Source of the DNA: Candidatus Omnitrophota bacterium
Lineage (GTDB): Bacteria > Omnitrophota > Gorgyraeia > Gygaellales > Profunditerraquicolaceae
Direction of reading: 5' to 3'
DNA: 64,000 nt
Assembly (NCBI GenBank): GCA_003598025.1
Contig: QZKH01000006.1
Coordinates: forward strand, 172,035 to 236,034
The position numbers and the translations under genes are program-made. The notes below the pieces were generated by a model. It saw only the letters and a program-made list of their open reading frames with translations, was not told where the DNA came from and searched no databases. Position 1 is the first letter of the stretch, and the number at the start of each line of letters is the position of its first letter. Shown here one piece after another: positions 2,303 to 26,693 of the stretch.

Positions 2303-2314
2303 TATAATTGTAAC

Positions 2315-2986
2315 ATGTATATTTTTTCAAAAGACAACAGCGTTTATTTATTCAGGATATTCCTTTTTTGTTTAGCCGGGTTGATTTTAATATCCGGTTG
2401 CTATTCGGCATCCACCTTGAAGAAAAACATACCTAAGGGTAAGGGCTTGATTATTTCTCCTGCCGAAGGCAATATAACTAAGATAATCAGGAATATAAAA
2501 ATAAATAAATCTTCCCACATAGAGCTGCATCACCTGGATAAGAATTGTTCTTTTGACGAGTTAGCCCCATATGCCAAAGACGGATCAAGCCTTGTAATAA
2601 TCTCAATGAAGCTTTACCATAAACATATTACACTCAGCCCTATAGCTGGGAAAGTTAGCAGGATATTTTATGTCCCGGGCGGATTCAGGAACGTGTTCTC
2701 GAAGGGTTCGTATGAAGAAAACGAGCACAATAGTATTATTATAGACGGCGATGTGGATTTAGCGGTGATCCAGATCGCCGGACTCATGGCAAGAAAAATA
2801 GTCTGTGGTGTCTTAGAGGGGCAGGAAATAAGCGCCGGCGATAAGCTTGGTCATATTAAGCTTGGGTCTGCGGTTGCGCTTTTTCTTCCTCCGGAATGCA
2901 AGATAGTTGTAAAGGAGGGCCAGAAAGTAGATGCTGCCAAAGATATTATTGCCCAATACCCCGTTATTGTTAATGATAATAAATAA
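2315..2986 (+). CDS. phosphatidylserine decarboxylase-related proenzyme (small archaeal/Asd-like type)
   Basis: N-terminal TM helix. C-terminal KLGSAV motif matches the LGS(T) self-cleavage/pyruvoyl site of PSD family. Size ~220 aa fits the short PSD-related family. Confidence 0.5.
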   Translation: MYIFSKDNSVYLFRIFLFCLAGLILISGCYSASTLKKNIPKGKGLIISPAEGNITKIIRNIKINKSSHIELHHLDKNCSFDELAPYAKDGSSLVIISMKLYHKHITLSPIAGKVSRIFYVPGGFRNVFSKGSYEENEHNSIIIDGDVDLAVIQIAGLMARKIVCGVLEGQEISAGDKLGHIKLGSAVALFLPPECKIVVKEGQKVDAAKDIIAQYPVIVNDNK

Positions 2987-3004
2987 TTTGCGGATCAGGA
3001 TTTA

Positions 3005-4327: not shown

Positions 4328-5736
4328 ACCTAATTTTAGTAAACCCATATTCACATTCGATATCCGGAGTAAACAAGGCGACTATTGAGCCTCCGGTTGG
4401 CCTGGCTTATATCGCGGCGTTATTGGAATCAAGAGGATACAATTGCCAGATTATTGATGCGCAGATTATGGGTTTATCTTCGCATGAGCTTTTACGCGAA
4501 ATAAGAATACAGCCTGATTTAATCGGGATATCATCAAGCATAGTTACTTATCCTGCCGCACTCGATACAGCCAAAGTATTAAAAGAGGCATTTAAAGGCA
4601 CTCCAGTTATTTTCGGAGGCCCGCACCCTTCGTCGATACCTGAGAAAGCCCTGCAGAATGATTGTGTGGATGCTGTTGCTGTCGGAGAGGCTGAAGCCAC
4701 TATGCTGGAAATCGCCCGGCGATTTAAGGACGGGGAGCATTTATTCTCCGGAATAGAAGGGGTAATATATAAAAATAATGGTGAAGTTGTTACAAACAGC
4801 CCTAGGAAACTTATCGAAGATTTAGATGCATTGCCTTTTCCGGCGTACCATCTTTTACCCGGATTTAAATTGTATAAAAGCAGGGCAAGAAAATCCCCGG
4901 TTGCTCCGCTATTGACTAACAGGGGATGCCCTTACCAGTGTACTTTTTGTAATAAGGATATATTTCAGAGGCGTATCCGTTCAAGGAGCCCGGAAAACGT
5001 TATCAAAGAGATTGACTGGTTGGTAAATAAATTCTCAGTAAAGCAGATAGATATTTTGGATGACAACTTTAATTTTGATTTGAACCATGCAAAGCAGATT
5101 CTAGACTTGATCATTGATAGGGATTATAGCTTGGCTATAAATATGCAAAATGGAATACGGGCAGATAATGTTGATCCCCAGCTTCTTGATAAAATGAAAA
5201 AAGCCGGGGTTTTTAAGATAGGCTTCGGCATTGAAACCGCAGACCCGCAGGTACAAAGAAAAATAAAGAAGGTACTTGACTTGGATAAGATAATAGGCAT
5301 AACCAGGCAGGCGCAGGAAAAGGGTATTATTGTTTATGCAAATTTTATCATCGGCCTGGTCGGGGATAGCCAGGAATCAATGCAGAGGACTATTGATTAT
5401 GCCGTGAGGCTCTCTCCTGATATCGCAAATTTTATGATAGCTTTGCCTTTACCCGGGACCGAGCTTTATAAAGAGATAGAAGAGAAAGGGAAGTTCCTGG
5501 TCAATGTAGATGGCGGTGTTGAAAAGGGATTCTATGGCAATCAGGTATTTTATGAAATAGGTTCATTAAACAAAGATATGGTGTTAAAATATTACCGTAA
5601 GGCATACCGGGATTTTTATATAAGGCCTGGACGTTGGGCCCGGTTAATAAGAAGCATACGTTCGGTTAATGAATTGATATGGTTTAAAGACGCGATATTT
5701 GATCTTATAAAGAATATGCTAATCAGAAACAGGTGA
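4324..5736 (+). CDS. B12-binding domain radical SAM protein (class B)
   Basis: Cobalamin-binding-like N-terminus (VIFGGPHPS...AVAVGEAE). CX3CX2C (RGCPYQCTFC). Start overlaps upstream stop by 4 nt (ATGA). Confidence 0.8.
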   Translation: MNLILVNPYSHSISGVNKATIEPPVGLAYIAALLESRGYNCQIIDAQIMGLSSHELLREIRIQPDLIGISSSIVTYPAALDTAKVLKEAFKGTPVIFGGPHPSSIPEKALQNDCVDAVAVGEAEATMLEIARRFKDGEHLFSGIEGVIYKNNGEVVTNSPRKLIEDLDALPFPAYHLLPGFKLYKSRARKSPVAPLLTNRGCPYQCTFCNKDIFQRRIRSRSPENVIKEIDWLVNKFSVKQIDILDDNFNFDLNHAKQILDLIIDRDYSLAINMQNGIRADNVDPQLLDKMKKAGVFKIGFGIETADPQVQRKIKKVLDLDKIIGITRQAQEKGIIVYANFIIGLVGDSQESMQRTIDYAVRLSPDIANFMIALPLPGTELYKEIEEKGKFLVNVDGGVEKGFYGNQVFYEIGSLNKDMVLKYYRKAYRDFYIRPGRWARLIRSIRSVNELIWFKDAIFDLIKNMLIRNR

Positions 5737-5742
5737 TTTGCT

Positions 5743-6471
5743 ATGAAAACAGTAAGCGTATTGATACCGGCAAAGAATGAATCAGAGACAATAGCCCCGC
5801 TTATCGGACAGATAAAAAATACATTCGCAGGGATAGATAAATATAACCTTGAGATTGTGGTTATCGCCGATCACTGCAACGACCAAACCGGTCGGATTGC
5901 GTTAGAAAACGGCGCCGTTGTATATCAGAATATCTATAAGCCGGGCAAAGGTAACTCCTTAAGGTTCGGTTTTGGGGTTTGTAAGGGTGATATTATAGTT
6001 ATGCTTGATGCCGATGGTTCGCATCAGCCGCAGGATATCCCGCACTTTATCGAGGCCATAGAAAAAGGTTCCGGGCTTGCAATAGGCTCAAGGGCAAAGG
6101 GCGGAAGCGATGAATACGAGATTATTAGGCTATTCGGGAATGCTGTTTTTACATTCCTTGTTGACATATTATTCTCTCTGGATCTTACAGATTCATTGAA
6201 TGGTTATAAAGCGTTCAGGCAGGACATAATAAATAGCCATAAGTTTAATTCCAGATGGTTTGATATTGAAATAGAGTTAATTTTTGCTGCGTTAATAAAA
6301 GGTTACAGGATAACAGAGGTATCAAGCCATGAGCTGGCTCGGCAGGGCGGCAGGATGAAATCAAGCACCTTTCTTGACGGCTTAAGGTTTTTATTTGCAA
6401 TATTCAAATGGGGGTTTAAATACAGGGTTATTAAAATATTAAGCATTCGCAAAAAGGATAGTGACAGATGA
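5743..6471 (+). CDS. GT2 glycosyltransferase, dolichyl/polyprenyl-phosphate sugar synthase-like (Dpm1/ArnC-like)
   Basis: N-terminal VLIPAKNE...IVVIADHCND and central MLDADGS (DxD) motifs characteristic of GT2 polyprenyl-phosphate glycosyltransferases. Confidence 0.75.
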   Translation: MKTVSVLIPAKNESETIAPLIGQIKNTFAGIDKYNLEIVVIADHCNDQTGRIALENGAVVYQNIYKPGKGNSLRFGFGVCKGDIIVMLDADGSHQPQDIPHFIEAIEKGSGLAIGSRAKGGSDEYEIIRLFGNAVFTFLVDILFSLDLTDSLNGYKAFRQDIINSHKFNSRWFDIEIELIFAALIKGYRITEVSSHELARQGGRMKSSTFLDGLRFLFAIFKWGFKYRVIKILSIRKKDSDR

Positions 6472-8363
6472 CCGCAAGCATAAACTATAACGAATTTTGG
6501 GTAAGCCTTTTTGATACAATGGATGATATTATTTTTATTGTTGATAAGGAATGTAATATAAAAAAGGCAAATAGCGCCTTTTTGCTGGCTATGAACAGTG
6601 AGGAAAAGAACTTTATTGATAAGAAATGCTATGATGTTCTTGGCAGTTGCTGTTGCGGTGTTAACTCTTGCCCGCATAAGGAGACCGTAAATGCGGCTAA
6701 GCTTACGACATCCGAATATTATGATGACAGGCTTAATAAGTGGTTTCACTTACGCAGCGCTCCGTTATTTGACAAGAATAATGCTGTATGCGGCTCTATA
6801 TGCGTGCTGATCGATATTACTGAGCATAAGGCTAAAGACGAGGAATTAGAGGAATTAAGCCAGGCTGTCGAGTTAAGCCCGACTTGTGTTATGATTACTG
6901 ATGCCGATGCCAATATTGAGTATGTTAATAAAAAATTCCTTCAGTTAACAGGATACGCCCTTGAGGAGGTTATTGGCAAAAACCCGCGAATATTAAATTC
7001 AGGAGAGCAAGATAAGGAATTCTACAAAAAGCTATGGGATACCATACTCTCCGGTGAAGAATGGAGAGGCCAGTTCCATAACCGGAAAAAAAACGGGCAA
7101 TTATACTGGGAGTCTGCCTTAATTTCATCAGTCAAGAATAAAGACGGTAAGATTATTCATTTCATAGCCGTAAAAGAAGATATTACCGAACGTAAAAAGA
7201 TGGAGGAAAGCCTGCTTGCTGCAAATGAAAGGTTAAAGGAGTTAGACAAGTTGAAGTCAGAATTTGTCGCTACTGTCTCTCATGAGTTAAGGACGCCTTT
7301 GTCAATTATGAAGGAGGGGGTTTCATTAGTTATAGATAAGGTTACAGGGCCTTTGAACGGGCGGCAGGAAAAAACCCTGGAAACAGTTTTTTCTAATATA
7401 GACCGGTTGACTCAGCTCATCAATGATTTATTGGATATATCAAGGATAGAGTCCGGTAAACTTCGCCTAAAGAAGAGTTTTATAAATGTTTCTGCACTTT
7501 TAGATGATACATGTTCTAAAATGAGGATACAGAGTGACTCTAAGCACCAGCAGCTACTTTGCTATATCCCGGATAAACCTGAATATCTGTTTGTTGACCA
7601 GGATAAATTTATACAGATCCTTACGAACATAATCTCAAATGCTGTCAAATATACCCCTGAAAACGGGATTATAACAGTAAGCTTGCAGGGTAAGGATGAA
7701 TCCGTTGAGTTTAGAGTGATTGATAACGGTTCGGGTATATCCCGTGAGGACCTGCCGAAGTTATTCGGAAAATTCGCGCAATTCGGGCGCAGCCCCGGTG
7801 CCGGGCCTAAAGGCACAGGTTTAGGCCTTGCAATAACCAAAGAGCTTGTTAATATGCATAAGGGCAGTATTTGGGTGGAGAGTGATTTGGGTAAAGGGAG
7901 TAAATTCGTCATTTCTTTGCCAAGAATTGAATGTATCGATATTTTTAAGGAGTCTGCAGGCAAGCTTATTGATGATGCCTTAAAAGAAGACAAGCCGATT
8001 ACTTTTATCTTATTGCAAATAGACAATTCTAACGAAATTATCAGTAAATATGGTTTCGCAGAATTTAACCTGGTATTGAGGAATATCGAAAGCGAAATAA
8101 ATAAAGCCTTAAGAGGCAAGGAAGATGTTGTGCAGGTTGGTAAGAATGAAATTATTATTTCGTTATTCGGCGTTGGTAAAGATACTTCCGGGATTGTTTA
8201 TGGCAGGATTGAAAACATTATAAGAGAGTATATTTTAAAATCAGGCTTACAATCAGCAAAGGAGCTTAAGACAAAAGCCGTCTTTATAAGCTATCCCGAG
8301 GAAACTAAGAACATAGAGGAGCTGTTAGCAAAGGTAAGTTGTTCTTCAGTTAAGAATGAATAG
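6468..8363 (+). CDS. PAS-domain sensor histidine kinase with C-terminal GGDEF-like (degenerate) domain
   Basis: Two PAS-like blocks. HisKA H-box ATVSHELRTPL. HATPase_c G-boxes (GTGLGLAITKELV, GKGSKF). An extra ~170 aa C-terminus resembles an inactive diguanylate-cyclase fold. Cys-rich GSCCCGVNSCPHKE near the N-terminus. Confidence 0.8.
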   Translation: MTASINYNEFWVSLFDTMDDIIFIVDKECNIKKANSAFLLAMNSEEKNFIDKKCYDVLGSCCCGVNSCPHKETVNAAKLTTSEYYDDRLNKWFHLRSAPLFDKNNAVCGSICVLIDITEHKAKDEELEELSQAVELSPTCVMITDADANIEYVNKKFLQLTGYALEEVIGKNPRILNSGEQDKEFYKKLWDTILSGEEWRGQFHNRKKNGQLYWESALISSVKNKDGKIIHFIAVKEDITERKKMEESLLAANERLKELDKLKSEFVATVSHELRTPLSIMKEGVSLVIDKVTGPLNGRQEKTLETVFSNIDRLTQLINDLLDISRIESGKLRLKKSFINVSALLDDTCSKMRIQSDSKHQQLLCYIPDKPEYLFVDQDKFIQILTNIISNAVKYTPENGIITVSLQGKDESVEFRVIDNGSGISREDLPKLFGKFAQFGRSPGAGPKGTGLGLAITKELVNMHKGSIWVESDLGKGSKFVISLPRIECIDIFKESAGKLIDDALKEDKPITFILLQIDNSNEIISKYGFAEFNLVLRNIESEINKALRGKEDVVQVGKNEIIISLFGVGKDTSGIVYGRIENIIREYILKSGLQSAKELKTKAVFISYPEETKNIEELLAKVSCSSVKNE

Positions 8364-8371
8364 TCTTGATG

Positions 8372-8434
8372 GTTAGTTCATAGTTCATGGTTCATAGTTT
8401 ATGGATTATCTATAACCATCAATCATGAACTAAT
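8372..8434. repeat. GTTCAT-heptad palindromic intergenic element (copy 1) between convergent genes
   Basis: Tandem GTTCATR heptads (TTAGTTCATAGTTCATGGTTCATAGTTTATGG) bounded by inverted termini GTTAGTTCAT ... ATGAACTAAT. Lies between the convergent kinase (+) and DJ-1 (-) genes. Confidence 0.5.
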
Positions 8435-8439
8435 AAATG

Positions 8440-9000
8440 TTATTCGAAATCCTCAAACACTATATCTTTTGCGATTCCCCTTGATTTTTCTCTGCCTTTA
8501 AGCGTGCTGACGATTTCTAAGGCAAAAGGTATGGATGTCGCGGCCGCCTGGCTGGTTATAATATTGGCATCGGCTACAACTTTATCTTTTGAATGGATAG
8601 TATCTGCGTGAAATAATTCTTCCATGCCCGGATAACATGTTGCTTTCTTGTTTTTAAGAAGCCCAAGTGGGGCAAGGACTATTGCCGGAGACGCGCATAT
8701 AGCAGCTATAAGCTTGTTTTCTTTACTAGCTTTTAATAATATTTTTCCGACCGTTTTTGATGCAGCCAGATTCTTTGCTCCCCTTGACCCGCCGGGTAGT
8801 ATATAAGCATCAAAACTCTCTTGCAGCCTGTTTATGCGCTCTTCGGCAAGCAGAAACATGCCCCTTGAACTCCTCACCTTAAGGCCGTCAATAGAGCTTA
8901 TGATGACATCAATATCAGCCCTTCTTAATATATCAATACATGATACCGCTTCAATCTCTTCAAATCCGTCAGCCAATAAGACCAGAGCCTTTTTTTTCAT
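8440..9000 (-). CDS. DJ-1/PfpI family protein (ThiJ-like)
   Basis: Conserved nucleophile elbow AICASPAIVL. ~186 aa, typical DJ-1 size and motif order. Confidence 0.8.
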   Translation of the reverse strand: MKKKALVLLADGFEEIEAVSCIDILRRADIDVIISSIDGLKVRSSRGMFLLAEERINRLQESFDAYILPGGSRGAKNLAASKTVGKILLKASKENKLIAAICASPAIVLAPLGLLKNKKATCYPGMEELFHADTIHSKDKVVADANIITSQAAATSIPFALEIVSTLKGREKSRGIAKDIVFEDFE

Positions 9001-9151
9001 AATCCCTCCTTGATTAACTTTGGATATTTATTATACTATCAATACCATAATAATCTTGCAAATAGAATTTTCATGAAGTAAAATAAGCTTGCCTATGACT
9101 TGCCTTTAAGCTAAAGGCAAGTGATTATAAATTAAAAAAAGGAGGAGGAAG

Positions 9152-9586
9152 ATGCATAAGAGAGTTAATTTCTTGGTCTTAGTTCTTGCAGCAGCATTAT
9201 TATCCGCGGGTTGTGAAACTGCAGGACAGAATACAACAGGTGGGGCTGTAGGCGGAGGATTACTTGGGGCTGCAGTCGGAGGTATAGTCGGGCATCAAAG
9301 CGGCCATGGCCTGGAGGGCGCGGCAATAGGGGCGGCTACAGGAGCTGTTGCCGGAGGATTAATCGGCAACCAGATGGATAAGAAAGCTATGGCAGTCAAC
9401 CCAAACCATATCCCAATAACAAAGATCGCAGAAATGGCATCCCAGGGCTTGCCCGATGCCGTAATAATAGACGAGATACAGAGGACAAAGTCTAAGTATA
9501 ACCTTAATTCTGAGCTTATAACCTATTTAAAGCAGAATAAAGTAAGCGATAGGGTTATTGATTATATGTTGTCTACAGGGAAATAA
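9152..9586 (+). CDS. lipoprotein with glycine-zipper (2TM/Gly-zipper) region
   Basis: Lipobox LLSAGC. Extended GxxxG glycine-zipper stretch (GGAVGGGLLGAAVGGIVG...). Strong SD AAAGGAGGAGG upstream. Confidence 0.55.
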   Translation: MHKRVNFLVLVLAAALLSAGCETAGQNTTGGAVGGGLLGAAVGGIVGHQSGHGLEGAAIGAATGAVAGGLIGNQMDKKAMAVNPNHIPITKIAEMASQGLPDAVIIDEIQRTKSKYNLNSELITYLKQNKVSDRVIDYMLSTGK

Positions 9587-9605
9587 ATTCATCATTTTAT
9601 AGCCC

Positions 9606-9645
9606 TCTCTGCCTGTTTAACAGGCAGAGAGGGGCGTTTTTGTTA
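9606..9645 (+). terminator. Rho-independent terminator
   Basis: Perfect 13-bp stem CCCTCTCTGCCTG / CAGGCAGAGAGGG with 6-nt loop, followed by GCGTTTTTGTT U-tract. Lies immediately after the 9152..9586 stop. Confidence 0.65.
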
Positions 9646-9653
9646 AAGTACCT

Positions 9654-10052
9654 ATGCTACGAAAATTGATATTCTTAATAGGCCTTTGCTTCATTTTAAG
9701 CGGCTGCTGCAGCATCTTAAATAACAGGGTATGCTTATTAAAGAGATTTTCAGCTAACAGGTCAGGGATCGAGAGCCTGTTGAACAGGCAGGAAGACGGT
9801 TTTTACCGCCTTCGTGACGATATAAAGAATAACAAATTAAAAACAGGGTTAAGTAAAAATAAAATAATCTCAGAATATTATTCCCCGGTTTTTTCGTATT
9901 TAAGGGATAAAGACAAAAATATCACTAAAGTACTGGTATACAGGCATCCTACTGAATACTTTTCCTCGGAGTTAATATATCTTTTCTTTGACAGGCGCAA
10001 CAGGCTTACCGCATGGCAGCTATTCGAACCGCCAGACTTAAGCGTATTATAA
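9654..10052 (+). CDS. small lipoprotein, unknown function
   Basis: Signal peptide with lipobox ILSGCC. No recognisable domain. Confidence 0.4.
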   Translation: MLRKLIFLIGLCFILSGCCSILNNRVCLLKRFSANRSGIESLLNRQEDGFYRLRDDIKNNKLKTGLSKNKIISEYYSPVFSYLRDKDKNITKVLVYRHPTEYFSSELIYLFFDRRNRLTAWQLFEPPDLSVL

Positions 10053-10067
10053 ACCCTTTAATTAAAA

Positions 10068-12026
10068 TTATGAGCGATTTTGTTTCTGGATGGTCTTTAT
10101 AAAAGCAAGCAGCCTGTTCTTTATTTCCGGGTTCATTCCGACGAATTCAATGCCGGTTTTGAACCTGTTTTTATGCTCATCCGAATTTTTTATCCATCTT
10201 ACCTTGCCGTTTAGCTTGAGGCGTTGCTTATTTATTAACTCGAAGTTCATGCTGATCGAAGAATCAGTATCAAGCCTGCTTTGTGTTTCAATGCACATTC
10301 CTCCCCTGGAGATGTCTATTGCCTGTGTTAGCTCGGGCTTTTTTTCTGATAGTATTTCTATTTCGGCTTTATAATTTATTCTTTTAGCTCTTCTTAACTC
10401 CGAGCCTATAAGGATCTTTTTTATCATTATATTAGCGGCGACCTTTTCCTGTGAATGAGGTTGATTTTCTGCGGGATAGGAAATCACCCCTATATTTATG
10501 AATACATTTTCAACCTTATTCCTGGAGAAATAATCTTTTATCCTGGATTTTAATGATTCGCAAAGCTGGTTTACTTGTTTCTCGTTTTTTGTGGTATAAA
10601 CCAGCCCAAAAGTGCCTTCCCGGTAGTCTTTAAGTATTACCTCTGCAGCGGCATGCGCGCCGGCTGATTTTTTTATTACATCCAACAGCAGTATATCCAG
10701 GTCCCTGAATAATCTCTTTGGTTCGGTTTTTACCCTGTTTTTGAATTTCCTGAAATTTATAATGTTAAGATTCACAAGATAAGCCTTCTCTCCGCTTTGG
10801 ATAACGGCATTTATCTTTTCTTTAACCTTAGGGCTGATTTCGGCAGTAGTATATATGCCCGATAAAGTAAAGAAGAACTTGCTTCCTATTCCGGGTCTTG
10901 ATTCACACCATATTTCTCCGCCGTGCCTTTCTACCAGCTCTTTGGTAATGGAGAGGCCCAGGCCCAATCCTTTTATTTGCTGGGCTATATTTTTTGATAC
11001 CTGAACAAATTTATTAAATAATTTGGGAATATCGTCTTTTGAAATGCCTATGCCGTCATCAATTACGCCTATCCTTATTTTATCCTCAAGTATCTTTACC
11101 TCGATTTTAATGTGGCCGTTTTCTTGGGTAAACTTGATGGCATTAGATAAAAGATTCGAAATGCATTGGTATATCCTTTCCGGATCAATAAAAATGTTTA
11201 TCTGCTTTTTAGGCAGGTCAAAGGAAACCCGGATTTGTTTTTGGGCAGCCAAATTCAAAAAGTCCTGATAAGATTGCAGGAGGAGATCGTTAAAGTTCAC
11301 AAGAGAGAAATTGACCCTAAGTGTCCCTTTTTCTATCCTGGAGATATCAAGGAGGTCTTCGATTATTTTTCTGAGCCTCTCCGTATTATTCCTGGCTTTA
11401 TATAACAGTTCCTTTTGCTTTTCATTAAGCGGCCCGGTTATTTCATCATGAAGCAGGAGTATTATTTCTTTGATTATTGACAAAGGGGTTCTTAATTCAT
11501 GGGAAACAATTGAAACAAAATCGGATTTCAGTTTGTTTAAATCTTTTTCAATCTCCAATTTTTTTTCAAGCATGCCTTTTTCGTTCTTGAGATAATCCAG
11601 CTGCATGCGGTGGGTGATATCCCTGGTTATGCCCATAAGGCCGATTATTTTGCCTTCTTTATCGAACCTCGGTATTTTTGTTGTGCTGACATAATTATCT
11701 ATGCCGTCAGGCCGGGTTGCCCTTTCGATTTTATCGATTATGGGATTCCCGGTCCGGATAACGAATTTATCGTCTTCAGCCATTTTTTTTGCGCGGTCTT
11801 TGGGAAAAATGTCAAAATCAGTTTTTCCAATGACCTGCTTGGGTTTTAAGCCTAAGCCTTTGGCGTGTGCTTCATTTACGAGTAGCAATTTGCCTTTTTT
11901 ATCCTTAAAGTATATTACATCGGGGATGTGGTTTATGAGGTCGGAGAGTAATTCGTATTTATTTTGTATATTGTTTCGGGAGCCCGGGTCGCTAATAAGG
12001 GGGTTAATGATTCTTTTTCTTGTCAT
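10068..12026 (-). CDS. PAS sensor histidine kinase with C-terminal GGDEF-like region and PilZ domain
   Basis: H-box SIVSHELRTPLSI. HATPase_c (GLGLGLSITKELVERHGGEIW, GIGSKF). C-terminus has PilZ signature motifs RRAKRINYK (RxxxR) and DISRGGMCIE (DxSxGG). Paralog of 6468..8363. Confidence 0.8.
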   Translation of the reverse strand: MTRKRIINPLISDPGSRNNIQNKYELLSDLINHIPDVIYFKDKKGKLLLVNEAHAKGLGLKPKQVIGKTDFDIFPKDRAKKMAEDDKFVIRTGNPIIDKIERATRPDGIDNYVSTTKIPRFDKEGKIIGLMGITRDITHRMQLDYLKNEKGMLEKKLEIEKDLNKLKSDFVSIVSHELRTPLSIIKEIILLLHDEITGPLNEKQKELLYKARNNTERLRKIIEDLLDISRIEKGTLRVNFSLVNFNDLLLQSYQDFLNLAAQKQIRVSFDLPKKQINIFIDPERIYQCISNLLSNAIKFTQENGHIKIEVKILEDKIRIGVIDDGIGISKDDIPKLFNKFVQVSKNIAQQIKGLGLGLSITKELVERHGGEIWCESRPGIGSKFFFTLSGIYTTAEISPKVKEKINAVIQSGEKAYLVNLNIINFRKFKNRVKTEPKRLFRDLDILLLDVIKKSAGAHAAAEVILKDYREGTFGLVYTTKNEKQVNQLCESLKSRIKDYFSRNKVENVFINIGVISYPAENQPHSQEKVAANIMIKKILIGSELRRAKRINYKAEIEILSEKKPELTQAIDISRGGMCIETQSRLDTDSSISMNFELINKQRLKLNGKVRWIKNSDEHKNRFKTGIEFVGMNPEIKNRLLAFIKTIQKQNRS

Positions 12027-12153
12027 TTTTTTACTATTTTTGCCGGTATTGATCCTATACTAATCATACTACCCAAAGGCGCGTAAGTCAACAATTGTTA
12101 GTTGTTATTTCGTATATTCATTTCTAAATAAACCCTGTATTTTCAATGTGTTA

Positions 12154-12181
12154 TTGTAAAAAAAGGCGATTATGTTATAAT
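12154..12181 (+). promoter_or_regulatory. sigma70-like promoter (TTGTAA-16-TATAAT) for receiver gene operon
   Basis: Hexamers read directly in the divergent intergenic region between the histidine kinase (-) and the receiver gene (+). Consensus-like -10. Confidence 0.3.
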
Positions 12182-12256
12182 CATAAACAGGCAAAATTAT
12201 TGTTGATTAATATGTTTTGTATGTTATTTTATGTATTATAGGCAAAGGAGGGCAAA

Positions 12257-12643
12257 ATGCCTAAGAAAAAGATTTTAGTCGTTGACGATGAGGCCCATTT
12301 CTTAGAATTGATTAAGATGAGGCTGGAGGCAAATGGTTACGAAGTTGTAACTGCTAATTCCGGTAGAGAGGCAATTAATATCCTTAATGAAAAAAAACCT
12401 GATGCGGTCCTGTTGGATATAATTATGCCGGATATTGACGGGATCAAGGTTTTAGAAGAAATCAGGAAGAAATATAAGAAGTTGCCGGTATTTATGATTA
12501 CCGGTTTTTCGGGAGATGAGCGTTTTAAACTTGCTAACACCTTTGAGGCATCCGGTTTTATAGTAAAGACCAAAGATTTGAATGAAGAGATAAAGAATAT
12601 TACCGGGGTTCTCAATATGGCGGATAGATATAAGAAAAGCTGA
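12257..12643 (+). CDS. single-domain response regulator receiver (CheY/PilH-like)
   Basis: ILVVDDE, phospho-acceptor region LLDIIMPDIDG, conserved T/K positions. 128 aa. SD GGAGGG. Confidence 0.85.
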   Translation: MPKKKILVVDDEAHFLELIKMRLEANGYEVVTANSGREAINILNEKKPDAVLLDIIMPDIDGIKVLEEIRKKYKKLPVFMITGFSGDERFKLANTFEASGFIVKTKDLNEEIKNITGVLNMADRYKKS

Positions 12644-12668
12644 TAACTAAAATATGAGGGGATAGGTC

Positions 12669-13037
12669 ATGGAGCAGAAAAAAATTCTTATTGTTGACGA
12701 TGAGCCGGAATTAGTAGAAGTGCTCAGGCTGAGGCTGGAGGCAAATGGATATACCGTAATGGAGGCATCTAACGGCCAGGAGGGTTTTGATATGGCCAGG
12801 GGCCTGAAACCGGATTTGATTATCCTGGACTTAATGCTCCCTAAAATAGACGGGTATAAAATTTGCCGTATGCTTAAATTCGACGAAAAATATAAACATA
12901 TCCCTATTATTCTGTTTACCGCCCGTGCCCAAGACCAGGATTTAAAAACCGGCATGGAGGTGGGAGCTGATGCCTATATTACCAAGCCGTTTGAACCACA
13001 AGTATTATTATCTAAAATAAAAGAGTTAATCAAGTAG
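12669..13037 (+). CDS. single-domain response regulator receiver (CheY/PilG-like)
   Basis: ILIVDDEPE, ILDLMLPKIDG. 122 aa. Tandem paralog of the preceding receiver. Confidence 0.85.
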   Translation: MEQKKILIVDDEPELVEVLRLRLEANGYTVMEASNGQEGFDMARGLKPDLIILDLMLPKIDGYKICRMLKFDEKYKHIPIILFTARAQDQDLKTGMEVGADAYITKPFEPQVLLSKIKELIK

Positions 13038-13040
13038 GCC

Positions 13041-14699: not shown

Positions 14700-14700
14700 T

Positions 14701-15918: not shown

Positions 15919-15926
15919 AGGCAGGA

Positions 15927-16071: not shown

Positions 16072-16101
16072 TAATATAATCTCCTTGCAAATAATATCGC
16101 T

Positions 16102-16497
16102 ATGATATATAATCGCTCTAAAGTTGGTTTTACGTTCTTTGAAGCAGTCATATCCTTGACAATAATAGCAGTATTTATCTCGGTTTTTTTTATTTTCTAT
16201 CACCAGGCATCCATATTAGCAAAAGAAAAGGTACTGCAGGTGGAATTAAAAGGCCTTAGGATGTCGCTTTCTTTATATAAAGCAACGCAGGGGCATTATC
16301 CGCAAGACTTGAGGGAATTGATATCGGCAAATTATAAGATGGCAACACTTGCCGACGTTTTATTTAAAAGCGAATATTTATCTACAATATCAACGGATAA
16401 AGAAGGGTTCCCTGTGGATGTCTTTGGAAATAGATACCATTATGATCCTTATCGGGGCGATGTTGCTTCGGCTACGAGGGATTATCAAAACTGGTAA
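16102..16497 (+). CDS. prepilin-type N-terminal cleavage/methylation domain protein (pseudopilin)
   Basis: Leader MIYNRSKVG then FTFFEAVISLTIIAVFISV (GFTxxE prepilin motif with E5). Confidence 0.65.
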   Translation: MIYNRSKVGFTFFEAVISLTIIAVFISVFFIFYHQASILAKEKVLQVELKGLRMSLSLYKATQGHYPQDLRELISANYKMATLADVLFKSEYLSTISTDKEGFPVDVFGNRYHYDPYRGDVASATRDYQNW

Positions 16498-16525
16498 GTC
16501 TTGAAAAATCGAAAGGAGGAGTAGC

Positions 16526-16906
16526 ATGATCAACAGAAAAGGTTTCACGCTTATTGAGCTTGTCATGATCATCGTCATACTCGGTATACTTGCAGCAGTC
16601 GCAATACCCAATTTTTATAACCTTCAGAGCGATGCAAAGACTTCAGCCGAAAAGGGTGTTGTCGGCGGAGTAAGGGCAGGCATTGCCACTTATTATGCAA
16701 ACCAATGCGCAAGCGGTACATGCGCATACCCGGCTGCGCTTGATGCAGCAACAACCGGTGCTTGCACTGCATCAAATGCCTGTTTTGATAATGTCCTTTC
16801 TCAAGGTGGTATAACCTCTGACTGGACAAAGGCATCAGCTACTACTTATACCGGTCCTGCAGGCACTACTTATACTTATACTGCCGCCACAGGGTCTTTC
16901 CAATAA
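16526..16906 (+). CDS. pilA: type IVa major pilin (PilA-like)
   Basis: Short leader MINRKG followed by FTLIELVMIIVILGILAAVAIP. C-terminal Cys pairs for a disulfide-bonded D-region. Strong SD GAAAGGAGGAG. Confidence 0.8.
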   Translation: MINRKGFTLIELVMIIVILGILAAVAIPNFYNLQSDAKTSAEKGVVGGVRAGIATYYANQCASGTCAYPAALDAATTGACTASNACFDNVLSQGGITSDWTKASATTYTGPAGTTYTYTAATGSFQ

Positions 16907-16917
16907 TCTTATTTAAT

Positions 16918-16963
16918 GAGGCGGCTGGTAATCCGTTGTTCATAGCGTATTACCGGCTGCCTC
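16918..16963 (+). terminator. stable stem-loop downstream of pilA (terminator/attenuator-like, no U-tract)
   Basis: 15-bp stem GAGGCGGCTGGTAAT/ATTACCGGCTGCCTC (two G-U pairs). 16-nt loop containing GTTGTTCATAGCG. Confidence 0.4.
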
Positions 16964-16987
16964 AAGTTACTCACTTCCTTAGAGGAG

Positions 16988-17761
16988 ATGCATATCAATA
17001 AAAAAGGCATCACCCTAATTGCCTCAGTTTTCCTGATAGTATTAGCTTCCATACTGATTTTAAGCCTTTCATTCTTTATTGTCCAAAGGCTCTCCCAGGG
17101 CCAGACAGAGATCATTAAAACAAAAACAATTTATTCGGCTAATGCAGGGATAAACAGCTCTGCATATTGGTTCAGGTTCCATGATTTAACCGCAAACGGG
17201 TATTTTACCTTAGGGCAGACAAATACCGGTTCCCAGGATTATTTTGTCTTAGGCGGAGATGCCGCAGATCTATTGATGCTTAATACCATCAATTCATTCC
17301 TTGCTTCTTCTAACAGGAATTTAGAAGGGCTTACTATGCAAAATGCCACTAATTCAAGCAGTATTACGATCGACCGGATGATTGTTACCTGGAATAATAA
17401 TAGGAGGCTGCGAGTGATAGGAATAAACGGCAGCAATGTTTGGACCGGGAATTCAGCCTCTCCTGCTGATTGTAACATATCAAACTTTACTCTTAATACC
17501 ACCCCAACAATATATAGTATAAATTATCTGCAATTTAACAACAGTATGACCGGAGCTACTATATCTATTCAGTTCGTCATGACTGACGGTTCAAGCAAGA
17601 CTTTGACAGCATATCCGGCTTCCAATAATTATAATTTCACGGTTAAATCTACAGGGAAGACTACAGGTTCAAGTTTTTACAGGACGGTACAGGCAGAATA
17701 TAACGCACTCACATCTAAATTTATTGATTATGATGAAATATATACACAGATTACACCATAA
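16988..17761 (+). CDS. PilX-like minor pilin / pilus-associated protein (N/S/T-rich)
   Basis: N-terminal KKGITLIASVFLIVLASILIL hydrophobic segment lacking E5, as in PilX. Rest is Asn/Ser/Thr-rich with many N-x-S/T sequons. Confidence 0.45.
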   Translation: MHINKKGITLIASVFLIVLASILILSLSFFIVQRLSQGQTEIIKTKTIYSANAGINSSAYWFRFHDLTANGYFTLGQTNTGSQDYFVLGGDAADLLMLNTINSFLASSNRNLEGLTMQNATNSSSITIDRMIVTWNNNRRLRVIGINGSNVWTGNSASPADCNISNFTLNTTPTIYSINYLQFNNSMTGATISIQFVMTDGSSKTLTAYPASNNYNFTVKSTGKTTGSSFYRTVQAEYNALTSKFIDYDEIYTQITP

Positions 17762-18137
17762 TAATGGTTTTACCTTGATTGAACTTATAATGACAATAGT
17801 AATTATTGGGGTTATCGCTATTCCTTTGTCCCTTACCATATTTGCCCAGGTTGAAAGTGCATTTTATAGCCAGGATTTAACAATAGCTCTGAACTTGGGG
17901 AGGCTTGAGATGGAGGGTGTTTATGCGAGTCCATATACTAACATAGTAAGTGCAACTTTTGGCAATTACCAGGGGTATGGTTATGATGTGGCCAGGGTCG
18001 TTACTTATGCGCAGGGGGACGGTTCATCAGCAGAGAGCCTTAAAAAAATAGAGGTAACCGTATCAAGAGCCGGATCGACTGATGTCTTGGTGTCATTTTC
18101 AACATATATTGCCAAGAATGTAAGCTATGGATTATGA
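17724..18137 (+). CDS. minor pilin (prepilin-type N-terminal domain)
   Basis: NNGFTLIELIMTIVIIGVIAIPL canonical class III signal with E5. Overlaps upstream gene. Confidence 0.7.
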   Translation: MIMMKYIHRLHHNNGFTLIELIMTIVIIGVIAIPLSLTIFAQVESAFYSQDLTIALNLGRLEMEGVYASPYTNIVSATFGNYQGYGYDVARVVTYAQGDGSSAESLKKIEVTVSRAGSTDVLVSFSTYIAKNVSYGL

Positions 18138-18741
18138 TAAATTAGGCATTAGACAGGGTAAAGATATGACGGGTAATCATAAGGCAGCTTTTACAATAAT
18201 TGAGTTTATAATGGTAATGGTGATTATCGGCGTATTGGTCTCAACCGGCGTTTTTATCATGTTGAACCTGACACAGAATTCTGTCTTTTTACCTAATAAG
18301 CTTAATGTAGAAATGGCAGGCCAGGATATTATGGATGATATTATTGATGGTTACCAGAGCCAGGGTTATTCCAGGGTAAAAGGTTTGAGGTTTTCAAGGC
18401 AAATCGTATCGGCCAATCCTGATGCGGTTAATTTTATTAATTCCGATGGCCAGAATGTTCAGTTCAGCTGGGATAACACAAATAAAATTATCAGCCGTTC
18501 TGTTGACGGCGGGCCTGTTCAGAAAATCCCATATTATTTTCCCAACAGTATGTCTATCGTTAAATCCGGGTCAAGCGATATCTTTATCTTTTATGATGCC
18601 AATTCAGCGGTGACAAGCACTGCCTCCGATGTGCGCAGCATAAAGATAACTTTCAGGGTACAAAGCGGTAGCGGAAACTTCCAGGATTGGCAGCATCAGG
18701 TTGATTTTCTTTCAGGCGTTGCGGTGAAAAAATTCCAGTAA
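18127..18741 (+). CDS. minor pilin (PilV/PilW-like)
   Basis: KAAFTIIEFIMVMVIIGVLVSTGVFIM prepilin motif. 204 aa. Confidence 0.65.
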   Translation: MDYDKLGIRQGKDMTGNHKAAFTIIEFIMVMVIIGVLVSTGVFIMLNLTQNSVFLPNKLNVEMAGQDIMDDIIDGYQSQGYSRVKGLRFSRQIVSANPDAVNFINSDGQNVQFSWDNTNKIISRSVDGGPVQKIPYYFPNSMSIVKSGSSDIFIFYDANSAVTSTASDVRSIKITFRVQSGSGNFQDWQHQVDFLSGVAVKKFQ

Positions 18742-18747
18742 AATGTA

Positions 18748-18776
18748 TTGATAATATAGTAAAAGGCAGATAGAAT
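18748..18776 (+). promoter_or_regulatory. sigma70-like promoter TTGATA-17-TAGAAT
   Basis: Hexamers read directly in the 64-bp gap upstream of 18806, followed by SD AAAGGAGAAG. Confidence 0.35.
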
Positions 18777-18805
18777 ATTAATAATTTTCCAAAAGGAGAA
18801 GTAAA

Positions 18806-19039
18806 ATGTTTTTCTTAATTTTTGCCGGGGTAGTTTCACTGGTTTTCGGGATACTATTCTTGTTTTTCCCTGTAGCATTGCGTAACCTTAATGATAAAGC
18901 AAACTTAATTATGACAAGGTCTTTGGCATCTCTTGATGAAAATATAATGAAAATGCGGCTGGGTGTCGGCATTTCTTTAATATTAGCTTCAATATTATCA
19001 TTTTTTGTAATCCTTTATATTATAAAAAGAAGTGGTTAA
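18806..19039 (+). CDS. small two-TM membrane protein, unknown function
   Basis: 77 aa, two hydrophobic helices, good SD. Sits between the pilin genes and pilM. Confidence 0.4.
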   Translation: MFFLIFAGVVSLVFGILFLFFPVALRNLNDKANLIMTRSLASLDENIMKMRLGVGISLILASILSFFVILYIIKRSG

Positions 19040-20729
19040 AAATAATCTACATTTTCCCGGTATGCCTGCAGATATTAAAGGCAAAATTTTGCGCTTATCC
19101 GCAAAAATCGATGCTTTTAGATCGGCTCTAGCCGATAAAAGTATCAGGAGGGTCATTGCTGCTGAGTTAGGCAAAAGGAGCCTTAAAATCTGCTACTTGG
19201 AACTGGCCGGCCAAAAAGTAAAAATCCTGAATTATAAAACCGAAGAAATTTTTCCCGGCGCCGATTACATAAGCAGCCTTAAAGCGCTTGTATTCAGTTT
19301 CTTAAGCCAATATGCGATTGAGGGCAGGGATGTTTATGTCAGCATATCGGATATCGGGATGTTTTCGTTTAAGCATATAATTATACCCGCAGTCCCCAAA
19401 AATGAAATCAGAGATGCGGTCCTATGGCAATTAAAAAGCGATCCGGACTTCAACGATGCCGCTATTTTTGATTGGCAGCTTATAAAGGAAGGCGTAGATA
19501 AAGATGGCGTAAAAAAGATTGAAATAATGGGAGTGTTTACAAAGTCCGAGACTATCAACAGTTATCTTGAGCCATTCAGTGAGCATGGGTTAATACCGGT
19601 ATATCTTTCCTGCACCCCGTTTGTTTATCAGGATATCCTTGGCGCTATCCCGAAGAAGCAGGATGCATTCATGGTATTGAATGTCGGCGAAAAGGAATCA
19701 TGGGTTGGGATTTACAATAACAATAAATTGAATTTCATCAGAGAGCTTGCCTTTTCGACTGAAAAGATTATACAGTCTTTGACCGGCGTTTTGGCTTTTG
19801 ACCAAGGTAAAGTTGAGATCACTCCTGGCAAGGCGGCATCGCTAAAAGATAAATACGGCATCCCTATGGATGAAGGTATTGTTTTAGATGGCGGCATAAA
19901 AGCCATTCATATTATATCTCTTATGCGTCCTGTATTGGAGGGGTTGGTTAAAGAACTAAACAGGTCGGTTGAGTACTATAGGAGCAGCTTAAATAATGAA
20001 CTCAAGCCTCCATCGTTATTTATAATGGGGGATTCTTCGGATTTGAATAATTTAGACTTGTTCTTGCGCAAAGAACTTAATATTGATGTCACTAAGCTGG
20101 AAAGCATCCCGCTTCTGGAATCGCCTGAGCCCGGTCAAAAACAGGCAGCTGGATTTAATATTAGACTATTCCCGGGATTGATAGGCACTGTTTTGAATAA
20201 AGGAACTAATATAAATCTTTTGCCATCGGCTTTCCGCACTAAAAAGCTGGAATTGCTTGAAAAGTCTGTTTTAAGGATAACCGGTGTTATATTATCGGTA
20301 GTTTTTATAACAGCTGTTCTTTTCTTCAATTTCCAGATAAAGAGCTATAGAAAGAGGATCGATGTAAGCAGGGCGCATCTAAATGCGGTTGCTCAAACCC
20401 AGATGCTGAAGCAGAGGATCGACGCAAGGCAGTCAGCTATGGATAAGATCAGGCAATACAGGGTCCCTGTATACGGGATATGTAAATTAATAAGTTCTGT
20501 TGTGCCAGACACGATAATTTTAACCGAAGTCAGCCTTGATCAGTCTAAGAATATCCTGGTTATCAAAGGCAATACCCCTGTAGCCGCTAATATGGCTGAA
20601 CCGGTGATACTTAACTTCGTCGAAGCAATGGAAAAATCTTCTTTTATAAGCGAGGCAAGTTTGGCGGCCTCAGAGAATAAAGACGGCATACAGGAATTTG
20701 AAATAAGGTGCATCCTTAATAACAAATAA
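19032..20729 (+). CDS. pilMN: PilM-PilN fusion protein (actin-like PilM N-terminal, TM + PilN C-terminal)
   Basis: ~350 aa cytoplasmic actin/FtsA-like region, then a single TM (ITGVILSVVFITAVLFF) and a coiled-coil periplasmic region typical of PilN. Confidence 0.65.
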   Translation: MVKNNLHFPGMPADIKGKILRLSAKIDAFRSALADKSIRRVIAAELGKRSLKICYLELAGQKVKILNYKTEEIFPGADYISSLKALVFSFLSQYAIEGRDVYVSISDIGMFSFKHIIIPAVPKNEIRDAVLWQLKSDPDFNDAAIFDWQLIKEGVDKDGVKKIEIMGVFTKSETINSYLEPFSEHGLIPVYLSCTPFVYQDILGAIPKKQDAFMVLNVGEKESWVGIYNNNKLNFIRELAFSTEKIIQSLTGVLAFDQGKVEITPGKAASLKDKYGIPMDEGIVLDGGIKAIHIISLMRPVLEGLVKELNRSVEYYRSSLNNELKPPSLFIMGDSSDLNNLDLFLRKELNIDVTKLESIPLLESPEPGQKQAAGFNIRLFPGLIGTVLNKGTNINLLPSAFRTKKLELLEKSVLRITGVILSVVFITAVLFFNFQIKSYRKRIDVSRAHLNAVAQTQMLKQRIDARQSAMDKIRQYRVPVYGICKLISSVVPDTIILTEVSLDQSKNILVIKGNTPVAANMAEPVILNFVEAMEKSSFISEASLAASENKDGIQEFEIRCILNNK

Positions 20730-20730
20730 C

Positions 20731-21330
20731 ATGAAGAACATTAATTTTAAGATAAAATGGCTAAGCCTTAACGAAGCGCAAAAGAAGATTGCTGTAGTGC
20801 TTATGGTTTTTATAATAATAATATTAGTATTATGGATAACGATTTACAGGCCATTAAGAATAAAGGAACTGAATTTAGGCTTGGAATTGAAAGCCCTTAA
20901 TGCTCAGATTGCGCAGATAGAAAGCATATTTGGCAGCGATGCATCAATAGATGAGGGTATGCTGAGGATAAAAAAGGCGTCTGAAGCTGCTTTGGATAAG
21001 TTGCCAGCAGATGAGAAAGATAGCATAAGGATGCTTTCTGATGTAGCCAGGAAACATAATATTGAAATAATCTCCATTAAGCCTCAGCCAAAATCCTTGG
21101 TTTTAGACAAAGACCGGAAAGAGATCCAGGCTGAAGGCAAAACATGCCATAGTATTTTTGTCTCAATAGATATGATTTCAAGCTTCTCGGATTTGGTAGC
21201 TTATCTGGCTGTATTGGAAAATGAATTTAAAACCTTTATTACAGTAGAAGAGCTTGCTATTAACAGGCTGGAGTTATCAGGGGCGAAATTACCGGTAATC
21301 TTAAGCATTAACCTATATTTACTCAGCTAA
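20731..21330 (+). CDS. pilO: PilO-like type IV pilus assembly protein
   Basis: N-terminal TM, coiled-coil, ~200 aa. Position directly after pilMN. Confidence 0.5.
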   Translation: MKNINFKIKWLSLNEAQKKIAVVLMVFIIIILVLWITIYRPLRIKELNLGLELKALNAQIAQIESIFGSDASIDEGMLRIKKASEAALDKLPADEKDSIRMLSDVARKHNIEIISIKPQPKSLVLDKDRKEIQAEGKTCHSIFVSIDMISSFSDLVAYLAVLENEFKTFITVEELAINRLELSGAKLPVILSINLYLLS

Positions 21331-24185: not shown

Positions 24186-24264
24186 GTGCCTATGTTAGCA
24201 TAAAGCAAATTTTATTACAATAAATTGTTGAATATTGGCCTCTTTGTTATAGTATAATAAACAT

Positions 24265-26306: not shown

Positions 26307-26307
26307 A

Positions 26308-26679: not shown

Positions 26680-26693
26680 TCTAAGTATATCTT

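Follow-up and report, generated by a model that had tools for sequence, protein, structure and literature searches.

Histidine kinases with degenerate GGDEF tails, one carrying a fused PilZ domain, at a type IV filament locus of Omnitrophota

Results

Two histidine kinases lie upstream of a type IV filament locus

We analysed 64,000 nucleotides of genomic DNA from an uncultured Candidatus Omnitrophota bacterium (assembly GCA_003598025.1, contig QZKH01000006.1, positions 172,035 to 236,034; hereafter the window, G+C content ~39-42%), in which two histidine kinase genes, here named HK1 and HK2, precede two CheY-like receiver genes, RR_A and RR_B, and a cluster of type IV filament genes (Table 1). 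Both kinase open reading frames (ORFs) have uninterrupted translations, and Pfam calls the shared PAS-HisKA-HATPase architecture in each, in agreement with the original prediction, which had been made from the letters of the DNA. HK1 contains two PAS domains (the second at residues 128-243), followed by HisKA (263-330), HATPase_c (377-486) and GGDEF (492-621) domains, while HK2 contains PAS (27-140), HisKA (167-234), HATPase_c (281-388) and a terminal PilZ domain (544-643). The kinase boxes of both proteins are intact, with H272 in SHELRTPL, the N-box NIISNAVKYT (387-396), DNGSGI (419-424) and GTGLGL (449-454) in HK1, and H176, NLLSNAIKFT, DDGIGI and GLGLGL in HK2; in an alignment of 40 HK2 orthologs, H176 and the residues of the N, G1, F and G2 boxes are invariant. 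Since all catalytic boxes are retained and neither protein has a hydrophobic segment, HK1 and HK2 are soluble, cytoplasmic sensor histidine kinases, presumably with active cores. BLASTP aligns the two with 38% identity across 373 residues of PAS-HisKA-HATPase; however, the kinase core of HK1 is nearer to other Omnitrophota kinases (up to 55-58% identity in the aligned part) than to HK2, so the proposed paralogy of the two holds in a broad sense only. HK2 is 100% identical to a database protein that NCBI names "PAS domain S-box protein".

The kinase tails derive from a degenerate GGDEF domain

The tail of HK1 matches the Pfam GGDEF family (PF00990) with 38.3 bits (gathering threshold 23.8) and an E-value of 1.5e-9, and phmmer aligns it with solved GGDEF domains such as that of the T. 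maritima cyclase 4urg (E 0.002). Aligned with 4urg, HK1 has GKNEI in place of the GGDEF motif, Gln at the position of the metal-binding Asp, and Ile/Ser where guanine is bound by Asn/Asp. With all catalytic positions replaced, no diguanylate cyclase activity is possible, and judged by these residues the HK1 tail cannot be a cyclase. At the position of the inhibitory site (I-site), HK1 reads RGKED, which is GxxD or RxxE depending on the register, the Arg being displaced by one residue relative to the RRKAD of its relatives. HK1-type tails are carried by 18 other Omnitrophota kinases among the matches, with active sites (A-sites) such as DTGEL. We took RxxD five residues before the decayed A-site as the criterion for a receptor-type degenerate GGDEF domain, and found it at the I-site position in 15 of the 18; the I-site statistics, including those for pilus-linked kinases below, rest on 18 + 6 sequences, and an alignment-based search with HK1-type tails (word index) returned 2 proteins only. 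Entries such as P0210 are named "diguanylate cyclase" by their source although their active-site motif is DSGEL; the residues preclude cyclase activity in these tails, and the label is probably a misannotation.

For the domain that separates HATPase_c from PilZ in HK2, phmmer returned nothing meaningful among PDB sequences, and BLASTP of HK1 against HK2 left the two tails unaligned, so that profile methods were required. Comparison by hhalign of the HK2-family alignment (40 orthologs) with HK1-type tails gave a probability of 97.4% (E 1.1e-11, 116 columns), and a hidden Markov model (HMM) of HK1-like tails directly matches 33 of 120 HK2 orthologs. AlphaFold monomer models of full-length HK2 and of its isolated tail (pLDDT 76.6 and 81.3, respectively) predict the alpha-beta-alpha-alpha-beta-beta-alpha-beta order of the GGDEF/class III cyclase fold, and Foldseek retrieves the GGDEF domains 6tts, 4zve and 4urg from the PDB at TM-scores of ~0.5. 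As the hhalign comparison, the tail HMM and the predicted fold agree, we conclude that the middle domain of HK2 is homologous to the degenerate GGDEF tail of HK1. At the A-site position HK2 has GTFGL, the consensus of its family is GECSI, and the orthologs lack RxxD. The resemblance of both C-terminal regions to an inactive diguanylate cyclase, as initially suggested, is therefore borne out, directly by Pfam and by the lost catalytic residues in HK1, and through profile and fold in HK2. The search with domain HMMs, designated beforehand as a test that could refute the prediction, returned GGDEF in HK1 and PilZ in HK2, both above threshold.

HK1-type kinases in which a receiver domain follows the degenerate tail occur at two loci, L063 (4788-7547) and L064 (5848-7521), where they sit in larger arrays of multiple kinases and receivers upstream of PilB.

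HK2 ends in a PilZ domain with intact c-di-GMP motifs

The PilZ domain of HK2 matches PF07238 with 57 bits (gathering threshold 22.5) and an E-value of 2.7e-15. Both motifs of cyclic di-GMP (c-di-GMP) binding that had been noticed in it, RxxxR and a DxSxGG-type motif, are present as RRAKR and DISRGG, and their residues R545, R549, D571, S573 and G576 (RxxxR and DxSxxG) are invariant in 40 of 40 orthologs. AlphaFold predicts a beta-barrel followed by a long Lys/Arg-rich C-terminal helix (residues 633-651). In Foldseek the barrel matches the Alg44 PilZ-c-di-GMP complex 4rt0 with a TM-score of 0.78-0.80 and a root mean square deviation of 2.5, and the fold also matches MotI, VCA0042 and YcgR. The linker at residues 521-546, in which RxxxR lies, is modelled as disordered and flexible with low confidence, and the tail as a whole follows the ATP-binding domain without a long linker. 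In motifs, profile and predicted fold, the HK2 PilZ domain is that of a canonical c-di-GMP-binding PilZ protein.

The HK2 family is restricted to Omnitrophota

HK2 has more than 120 full-length orthologs at ~50% identity, with the same Pfam pattern throughout, and all of those named by source belong to Omnitrophota or to metagenome-assembled genomes (MAGs) grouped with them. A scan of one genome per GTDB species yielded 429 HK2 relatives, the best 80 of which are likewise all Omnitrophota or MAGs grouped with them. When the HK2 tail alone was searched against 1.84 billion representative proteins, 46 clusters were retrieved at E <= 1e-10, and those covering both tail domains are HK2-like proteins or fragments; the two-domain tail is thus all but confined to the HK2 family, and the module is restricted to the lineage. 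By these searches HK2 is a conserved, Omnitrophota-restricted family. A literature search within a limited library found no description of a PilZ-histidine-kinase fusion or of the HK2 family of Omnitrophota.

At three loci (L075, L077 and L078) the HK2 matches stop at query residue 388, i.e., at the ATP-binding domain, and the tail may be absent or strongly diverged there. L078 still has RR_B, PilB and PilC downstream.

Both kinase types are linked to receivers and to a PilB-type ATPase in related genomes

Synteny was counted in species-representative loci of the best 80 of the 429 HK2 relatives. In 33 of 66 loci HK2 is directly adjoined by an RR_B ortholog (at least 55% identity), and the two genes often overlap where one stops and the other starts (by 8 bp in the usual operon); a PilB-type ATPase lies on the same strand no more than 6 kb downstream of HK2 in 18 of 46, against a chance expectation for such linkage of ~1% in a genome of 1-2 Mb. 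The usual order elsewhere is a receiver gene, HK2, RR_B, PilB and PilC on one strand, which makes RR_B the likely partner of HK2.

Kinases with an HK1-type tail, 32-44% identical to HK1, are found in four loci (L072, L021, L059 and L015) directly upstream of RR_A or another receiver, RR_B, PilB and PilC. HK2 adjoins the HK1-type kinase in each of them, divergently in L072, as in the window; the nearest relative of HK2 (61% identity) also comes from L072, where RR_A and RR_B follow one another as they do in the window. RR_A orthologs (54-58% identity) stand directly downstream of the HK1-type kinases in L072, L021 and L059, and RxxD is kept in 5 of 6 pilus-linked HK1-type kinases. As the same four signalling parts recur in another order, the window would contain a reshuffled version of a module of two kinases and two receivers that is found repeatedly, and from adjacency we infer the pairings HK2-RR_B and HK1-type kinase-RR_A. 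The two receivers, first described as orphans, are hence nothing of the kind, since their counterparts in related genomes directly adjoin these kinases or overlap with them. The link of the kinases to the receivers and to pilB-pilC finds support in synteny, across the phylum for HK2 and within a subclade for the HK1-type kinases, but the c-di-GMP input attributed to HK1 is doubtful.

A Cys-rich segment in the first PAS domain of HK1

The Cys-rich stretch that had been noted in HK1 exists (Table 1) and lies in its first PAS domain, a position at which related domains keep a Cys/His motif. In ~16 related Omnitrophota PAS domains (P0201, P0237, P0223 and others) the motif KKCY-x4-VH-x8-CP-H is conserved together with a later His; the HK1 segment occupies the position of this motif, with both flanking His replaced, one of them by Cys. 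A search of PDB sequences by phmmer gave nothing meaningful, and no solved relative of this domain was found. A reading as a heme-c type CXXCH site was rejected, the sequence being C-x4-C-P-H. A metal or cofactor site in this PAS domain is plausible from the pattern of residues.

The receivers, the filament machine and the surrounding genes

RR_A keeps the DD pair, the phospho-acceptor Asp, the Thr and the Lys of a receiver, and RR_B, with canonical residues as well, has no output domain. The filament genes downstream resemble those of type IV pili and of type II secretion systems alike: in NCBIfam the ATPase scores 624.7 as GspE (cut-off 630) and 614.9 as PilB (cut-off 676), both just under the cut-off, the platform protein scores 346 as GspF and 337 as PilC, both below the cut-offs, and weak matches to GspG, for the first pilin, and to PilM are present. 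The PilM-PilN fusion and the T2SSM-like gene recall GspL-GspM. Of the parts expected of a type IV pilus, the ATPase, the platform protein, prepilins, the PilM-PilN fusion and the PilO/GspM-like gene are present, and the ORFs examined yielded neither a PilT retraction ATPase nor a secretin (PilQ). The scanned genes of the cluster at 13041-21786 likewise gave no secretin and no GspC. The neighbouring machine is best described, from these scores, as a putative type IV filament system of undecided class, type IV pilus or type II secretion system-like; its designation as a type IV pilus locus was right as to the filament genes, but they score equally well as a type II secretion system. We also compared the locus with the "secretion system upstream of giant genes" reported for Omnitrophota; the window contains no giant ORF.

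The c-di-GMP-binding MshEN domain consists of two 24-residue motifs, (R/K/L)LGxx..G..L..L..Q, 5 residues apart (PMC11731258). At the N-terminus of the window's PilB, RLG is missing from motif I, and Gly3 and Gln24 of motif II are Glu and His; 24 related Omnitrophota PilBs (L006-L081) deviate in the same way, with Gly3 replaced by Glu or Asp. A by-eye reading that PilB cannot bind c-di-GMP was dropped, as its N-terminus scores just above the cut-off of a model of this motif (see Discussion).

HK1 and HK2 both lie on one side of the filament locus, upstream of it, and do not flank it as had been stated; in the window neither kinase-receiver pair is both adjacent and co-oriented. Upstream of HK1 and co-oriented with it, an operon at 953-6471 (+) encodes two B12-binding radical SAM proteins, a phosphatidylserine decarboxylase, a PMT_2-type glycosyltransferase and a GT2 glycosyltransferase, and may modify lipids or the envelope. 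Genes for a DJ-1/PfpI protein (-), a glycine-zipper protein and one further ORF lie between HK1 and HK2. Scans for promoters and terminators gave counts not above the shuffled expectation (both strands of the divergent intergenic region have promoter-like matches), and therefore provide no evidence on operons. A terminator-like hairpin at 9603-9633 (+), 3' of the glycine-zipper gene, with a 14-bp stem, 9 G-C pairs and a T-rich tail, is the sole convincing site of its kind within 5500-16200.

A second PilZ protein (31553-32149 (+), 198 residues, Pfam E 1.9e-10) is encoded directly upstream of a polysaccharide export/assembly cluster (32203-37807: BBP2_2 porin, Wza-like Poly_export/SLBB, Wzz/GNVR P-loop protein and Wzy_C), which suggests another c-di-GMP output in the window. 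Elsewhere in it, 23103-29844 encodes a polyprenyl synthetase, a UbiA prenyltransferase, a pyridine-nucleotide oxidoreductase, an amine-oxidase/desaturase-like protein, LytB and a squalene/phytoene synthase, as in an isoprenoid/carotenoid-like cluster, and 54911-61104, at the 3' end of the polysaccharide cluster, encodes two beta-ketoacyl synthases, an amine-oxidase-like flavoprotein and another B12-radical SAM protein, possibly an unusual lipid or polyene pathway.

We also examined 1.18 Mb of Omnitrophota DNA around HK2 orthologs for enzymes of c-di-GMP metabolism. One locus (L003) encodes a cyclase-like membrane protein with DIDHFK, NDTYGH, RASD (RxxD) and GGEEM. In a protein of another locus (L046), the GGDEF-like domain is degenerate (GGATF), and the sequence after it was tentatively read as HD-GYP-like. 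The phylum therefore has c-di-GMP enzymes.

Table 1. Coordinates of the kinases, receivers and filament genes in the window
Feature	Position	Strand	Description
HK1	6468..8363	+	631 residues; PAS-PAS-HisKA-HATPase, then degenerate GGDEF tail (Pfam)
First PAS domain of HK1	6489-6833	+	PAS subtype recurring in many Omnitrophota kinases
Cys-rich segment, first PAS of HK1	6627..6683	+	C54, C61-C63, C68, H70
Degenerate GGDEF domain of HK1	7941..8330	+	Residues 492-621; Pfam GGDEF
HK2	10068..12026	-	652 residues; PAS-HisKA-HATPase, degenerate GGDEF-like domain, PilZ (Pfam, profile-profile comparison and fold)
PilZ domain of HK2	10098..10397	-	Residues 544-643; RRAKR 545-549, DISRGG 571-576
Degenerate GGDEF-like middle domain of HK2	10467..10838	-	Residues 397-520; no GGDEF motif, no RxxD
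Divergent intergenic region, HK2 / receiver-PilB operon	12027..12256	.	230 bp, AT-rich
RR_A	12257..12643	+	Single-domain receiver, 128 residues; Pfam Response_reg E 1.3e-26
RR_B	12669..13037	+	Single-domain receiver, 122 residues; Pfam Response_reg E 5.2e-31; canonical residues
PilB/GspE-type ATPase	13041-14699	+	Pfam T2SSE, MshEN
PilB N-terminus, MshEN-like	13041-13200	+	Residues 1-56; 24+5+24 spacing kept
PilC/GspF platform protein	14701-15918	+	Pfam T2SSF
Pilins/pseudopilins, PilM-PilN fusion (GspL-like), PilO/GspM-like gene	16102..21330	+	Pfam N_methyl, T2SSG, PilM_2, PilN, T2SSM

Discussion

Taken together, we read the locus as a rearranged copy of a lineage-specific signalling module of Omnitrophota, in which two cytoplasmic PAS kinases with dead GGDEF-derived tails and two CheY-like receivers precede filament ATPase and platform genes, and we give this reading a probability of roughly 0.55. 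The arrangement of kinases and receivers suggests that c-di-GMP would control the pilus or secretion machine. In the mechanism that we propose, c-di-GMP would bind at the linker/PilZ site of HK2 and the PilZ domain would be clamped against the degenerate GGDEF domain, a clamp modelled on the two-domain PilZ proteins VCA0042 and YcgR, which are among the best structural matches. On a more speculative reading, the degenerate GGDEF domain, the RxxxR linker and the PilZ domain would form an undescribed composite sensor, a PilZN-PilZ-like clamp built from the remnant of a cyclase. Clamping could change how freely the adjoining ATP-binding domain moves, which would shift the balance between kinase and phosphatase activities of HK2; the phosphorylation state of RR_B would then change, and RR_B, because it has no output domain, would exert its effect through binding to the PilB-type ATPase or to partners of that protein. 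HK1 would be the window's member of a second class of kinases with a degenerate GGDEF tail, paired with RR_A in relatives. The RxxD-bearing tails of most HK1 relatives could bind c-di-GMP as SgmT or PelD do, and HK1 itself, with its Arg displaced, may have lost this input and may rely on its two PAS domains, one of which has a Cys-rich variant of the Cys/His motif. Only tentatively do we propose a full circuit with two c-di-GMP inputs, one through the HK2-type composite sensor and one through an RxxD kinase, each phosphorylating its own CheY-like receiver acting on the PilB-type ATPase.

A number of observations weigh against the module as we read it. RR_B is missing next to about half of the HK2 orthologs, and PilB is missing near ~60% of them, so the linkage is frequent and not obligatory; the window ORFs that we examined yielded no diguanylate cyclase. 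HK2 is inverted in the window, being transcribed divergently from the receiver-PilB operon, and HK1 ends 3.9 kb before RR_A with four genes between them, including HK2 on the opposite strand; the placement of the kinases immediately upstream of the receivers, as first claimed, is thus correct in that both are upstream, but not as to distance for HK1 or orientation for HK2. Residues 392-540 of HK2 have no Pfam assignment at E <= 0.1 and hence no GGDEF call, the AlphaFold models of HK2 are monomers of moderate confidence (pLDDT 77 and 81), and class III cyclases score similarly to its middle domain in Foldseek (TM ~0.5), so that GGDEF is not separated from them. HK1 has no close ortholog (the top match is 46% identical), lacks the canonical RxxD I-site that most relatives have, which makes a c-di-GMP input to it doubtful, and overlaps with its start the stop codon of the preceding GT2 gene by 4 bp, in translational coupling. 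Lastly, the N-terminus of PilB passes the NCBIfam model NF053729 for an MshE-related c-di-GMP motif (41.2 bits against a cut-off of 38), and c-di-GMP might therefore act on PilB directly.

The features of HK1 invite an explanation that places it outside the pilus circuit, as a lineage-specific paralog regulating the upstream envelope-modification operon and with a tail that is a structural remnant. Its overlap and common orientation with 953-6471, the genes that separate it from RR_A, the distance to its best relative and the displaced I-site Arg all fit such a role; we nonetheless regard it as doubtful, because kinases with the same tail stand directly before RR_A, RR_B and PilB in L072, L021, L059 and L015, the first of which has the closest relative of HK2 and the window's order of the receivers, because the window has two receivers and no other kinase was found within 10 kb, and because the operon 953-6471 encodes no response regulator. 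A further explanation holds that the degenerate GGDEF-like domains are unconnected with c-di-GMP. As reused modules of the nucleotide-cyclase fold they would be scaffolds, for dimerisation or as pseudo-receivers, or would sense another nucleotide, and in HK2 the PilZ domain alone would provide a connection to c-di-GMP. The middle domain of HK2, without A-site and I-site, would agree with this, as would the cyclase-like Foldseek scores, with class III adenylyl cyclases about level with GGDEF, and the non-canonical I-site of HK1. Among the HK1-type tails, however, 15 of 18 retain RxxD in spite of catalytic decay, as do 5 of 6 of those linked to pilus genes, and this is the pattern of the receptors PelD, PopA and SgmT (PMC10333796; PMC3509222), and Pfam assigns GGDEF and not a cyclase family to HK1, so that we hold a c-di-GMP-independent role of the tails to be rather unlikely.

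Similarly, the PilZ domain, and the RxxD tails of relatives, could position or sequester the kinase instead of gating its catalysis, with HK2 tethered to the pilus motor in a c-di-GMP-dependent manner. There are precedents in the GGDEF domain of SgmT, which works by spatial sequestration of SgmT upon c-di-GMP binding (PMC3509222), and in the PilB-PilZ-FimX complex of Xanthomonas (PMC8389850); HK2 is genomically linked to PilB, and its PilZ domain ends in a Lys/Arg-rich helix, an element that a survey of PilZ proteins calls a protein-interaction surface (10.1101/814665). However, the PilB-binding PilZ proteins of Xanthomonas and Pseudomonas lack the c-di-GMP motifs that HK2 keeps invariant, and the direct junction of the HK2 tail with the ATP-binding domain favours an allosteric effect on the kinase. 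We consider localisation in place of gating improbable, and the two can coexist. As to the machine itself, it is quite possible, if short of an even chance, that it is a type II secretion system and that the module controls protein secretion, perhaps in connection with a predatory or epibiotic way of life, which has been proposed for Omnitrophota. The higher GspE and GspF scores, the GspG match of the first pilin, and the GspL-like PilM-PilN fusion followed by a T2SSM-like gene speak for secretion, whereas all NCBIfam scores of the ATPase and the platform protein stay below both equivalog cut-offs, no secretin or GspC is among the scanned genes of the cluster, no giant gene lies in the window, and matches to PilM and to the Amuc_1101 family indicate a pilus complex. 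For a pilus and a secretion system alike, the logic of regulation would be the same.

Among known systems, SgmT of Myxococcus xanthus is similar to HK1 and HK2 in being a cytoplasmic kinase with a cytoplasmic sensor domain and an inactive GGDEF domain after the kinase core (PMC3509222). The GGDEF domain of SgmT is a c-di-GMP receptor through its I-site, and SgmT is tied to type IV pilus-dependent behaviour (PMC3509222), a tie that the kinases described here would share. SgmT differs in having a receiver domain between kinase and GGDEF and in signalling to a DNA-binding regulator, DigR, whereas HK1 and HK2 have no receiver domain and are encoded beside single-domain receivers, HK1 without the canonical RxxD and HK2 with a PilZ domain; their sequence relationship to SgmT is one of shared domains only. 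In the HapZ-SagS pair of Pseudomonas aeruginosa, as in our proposal for HK2, a canonical PilZ domain modulates a two-component phosphorelay; HapZ is a separate, single-domain PilZ adaptor that binds the receiver domain of SagS and controls phosphotransfer (PMC10333796; 10.1101/2020.02.11.943704), whereas the PilZ domain of HK2 is covalently fused, via a dead GGDEF domain, to a kinase without a receiver domain. The principle proposed for HK2 is also seen in CckA and ShkA of Caulobacter, in which c-di-GMP toggles between kinase and phosphatase or relieves auto-inhibition, although CckA binds it at the ATP-binding domain and ShkA at a pseudo-receiver, neither with PilZ or GGDEF-derived domains (PMC10333796). 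YcgR, MotI/DgrA, VCA0042/PlzD and MrkH have, as HK2 does, an RxxxR motif in a linker before a canonical PilZ barrel and another domain preceding it; in these proteins, however, the N-terminal partner is a PilZ-like barrel, and none of them is attached to a kinase.

c-di-GMP inputs to filament assembly ATPases are known from the PilB-PilZ-FimX system of Xanthomonas (PMC8389850) and from the MshEN domains of MshE and PilF (PMC11731258). As with HK1 and HK2, degenerate GGDEF domains take part in the FimX system (PMC8389850). Unlike the route proposed here, the FimX and MshEN routes work by direct binding of a protein or ligand to the ATPase, with no phosphorelay; moreover, the PilB-binding PilZ protein of Xanthomonas has no c-di-GMP motifs, and the MshEN motif of the window's PilB is marginal. 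By its domain content and gene neighbourhood, HK2 is supported as a variant within the known class of c-di-GMP-responsive histidine kinases, confined to one phylum and tied to a pilus or secretion motor.

The c-di-GMP control of type IV pili is known to proceed via direct ATPase binders (MshEN, FimX-PilZ) or via transcription, and the control of histidine kinases by c-di-GMP is known from a few unrelated solutions, namely CckA, ShkA, SgmT and HapZ-SagS. The HK2 family would add a further modular solution, a PilZ domain fused to a kinase through a cyclase remnant, and would offer a simple in-vitro system of soluble proteins and a defined ligand. If the proposal is true, HK2 would be the first characterised example of a natural switch in which PilZ and a histidine kinase are covalently joined, and the two-input circuit would constitute a new post-translational route from c-di-GMP to the pilus or secretion machine in ultra-small, possibly predatory bacteria. 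The family thus provides a testable regulatory entry into the surface machinery of Omnitrophota, an uncultured phylum in which pili or secretion systems are thought to underlie attachment or predation.

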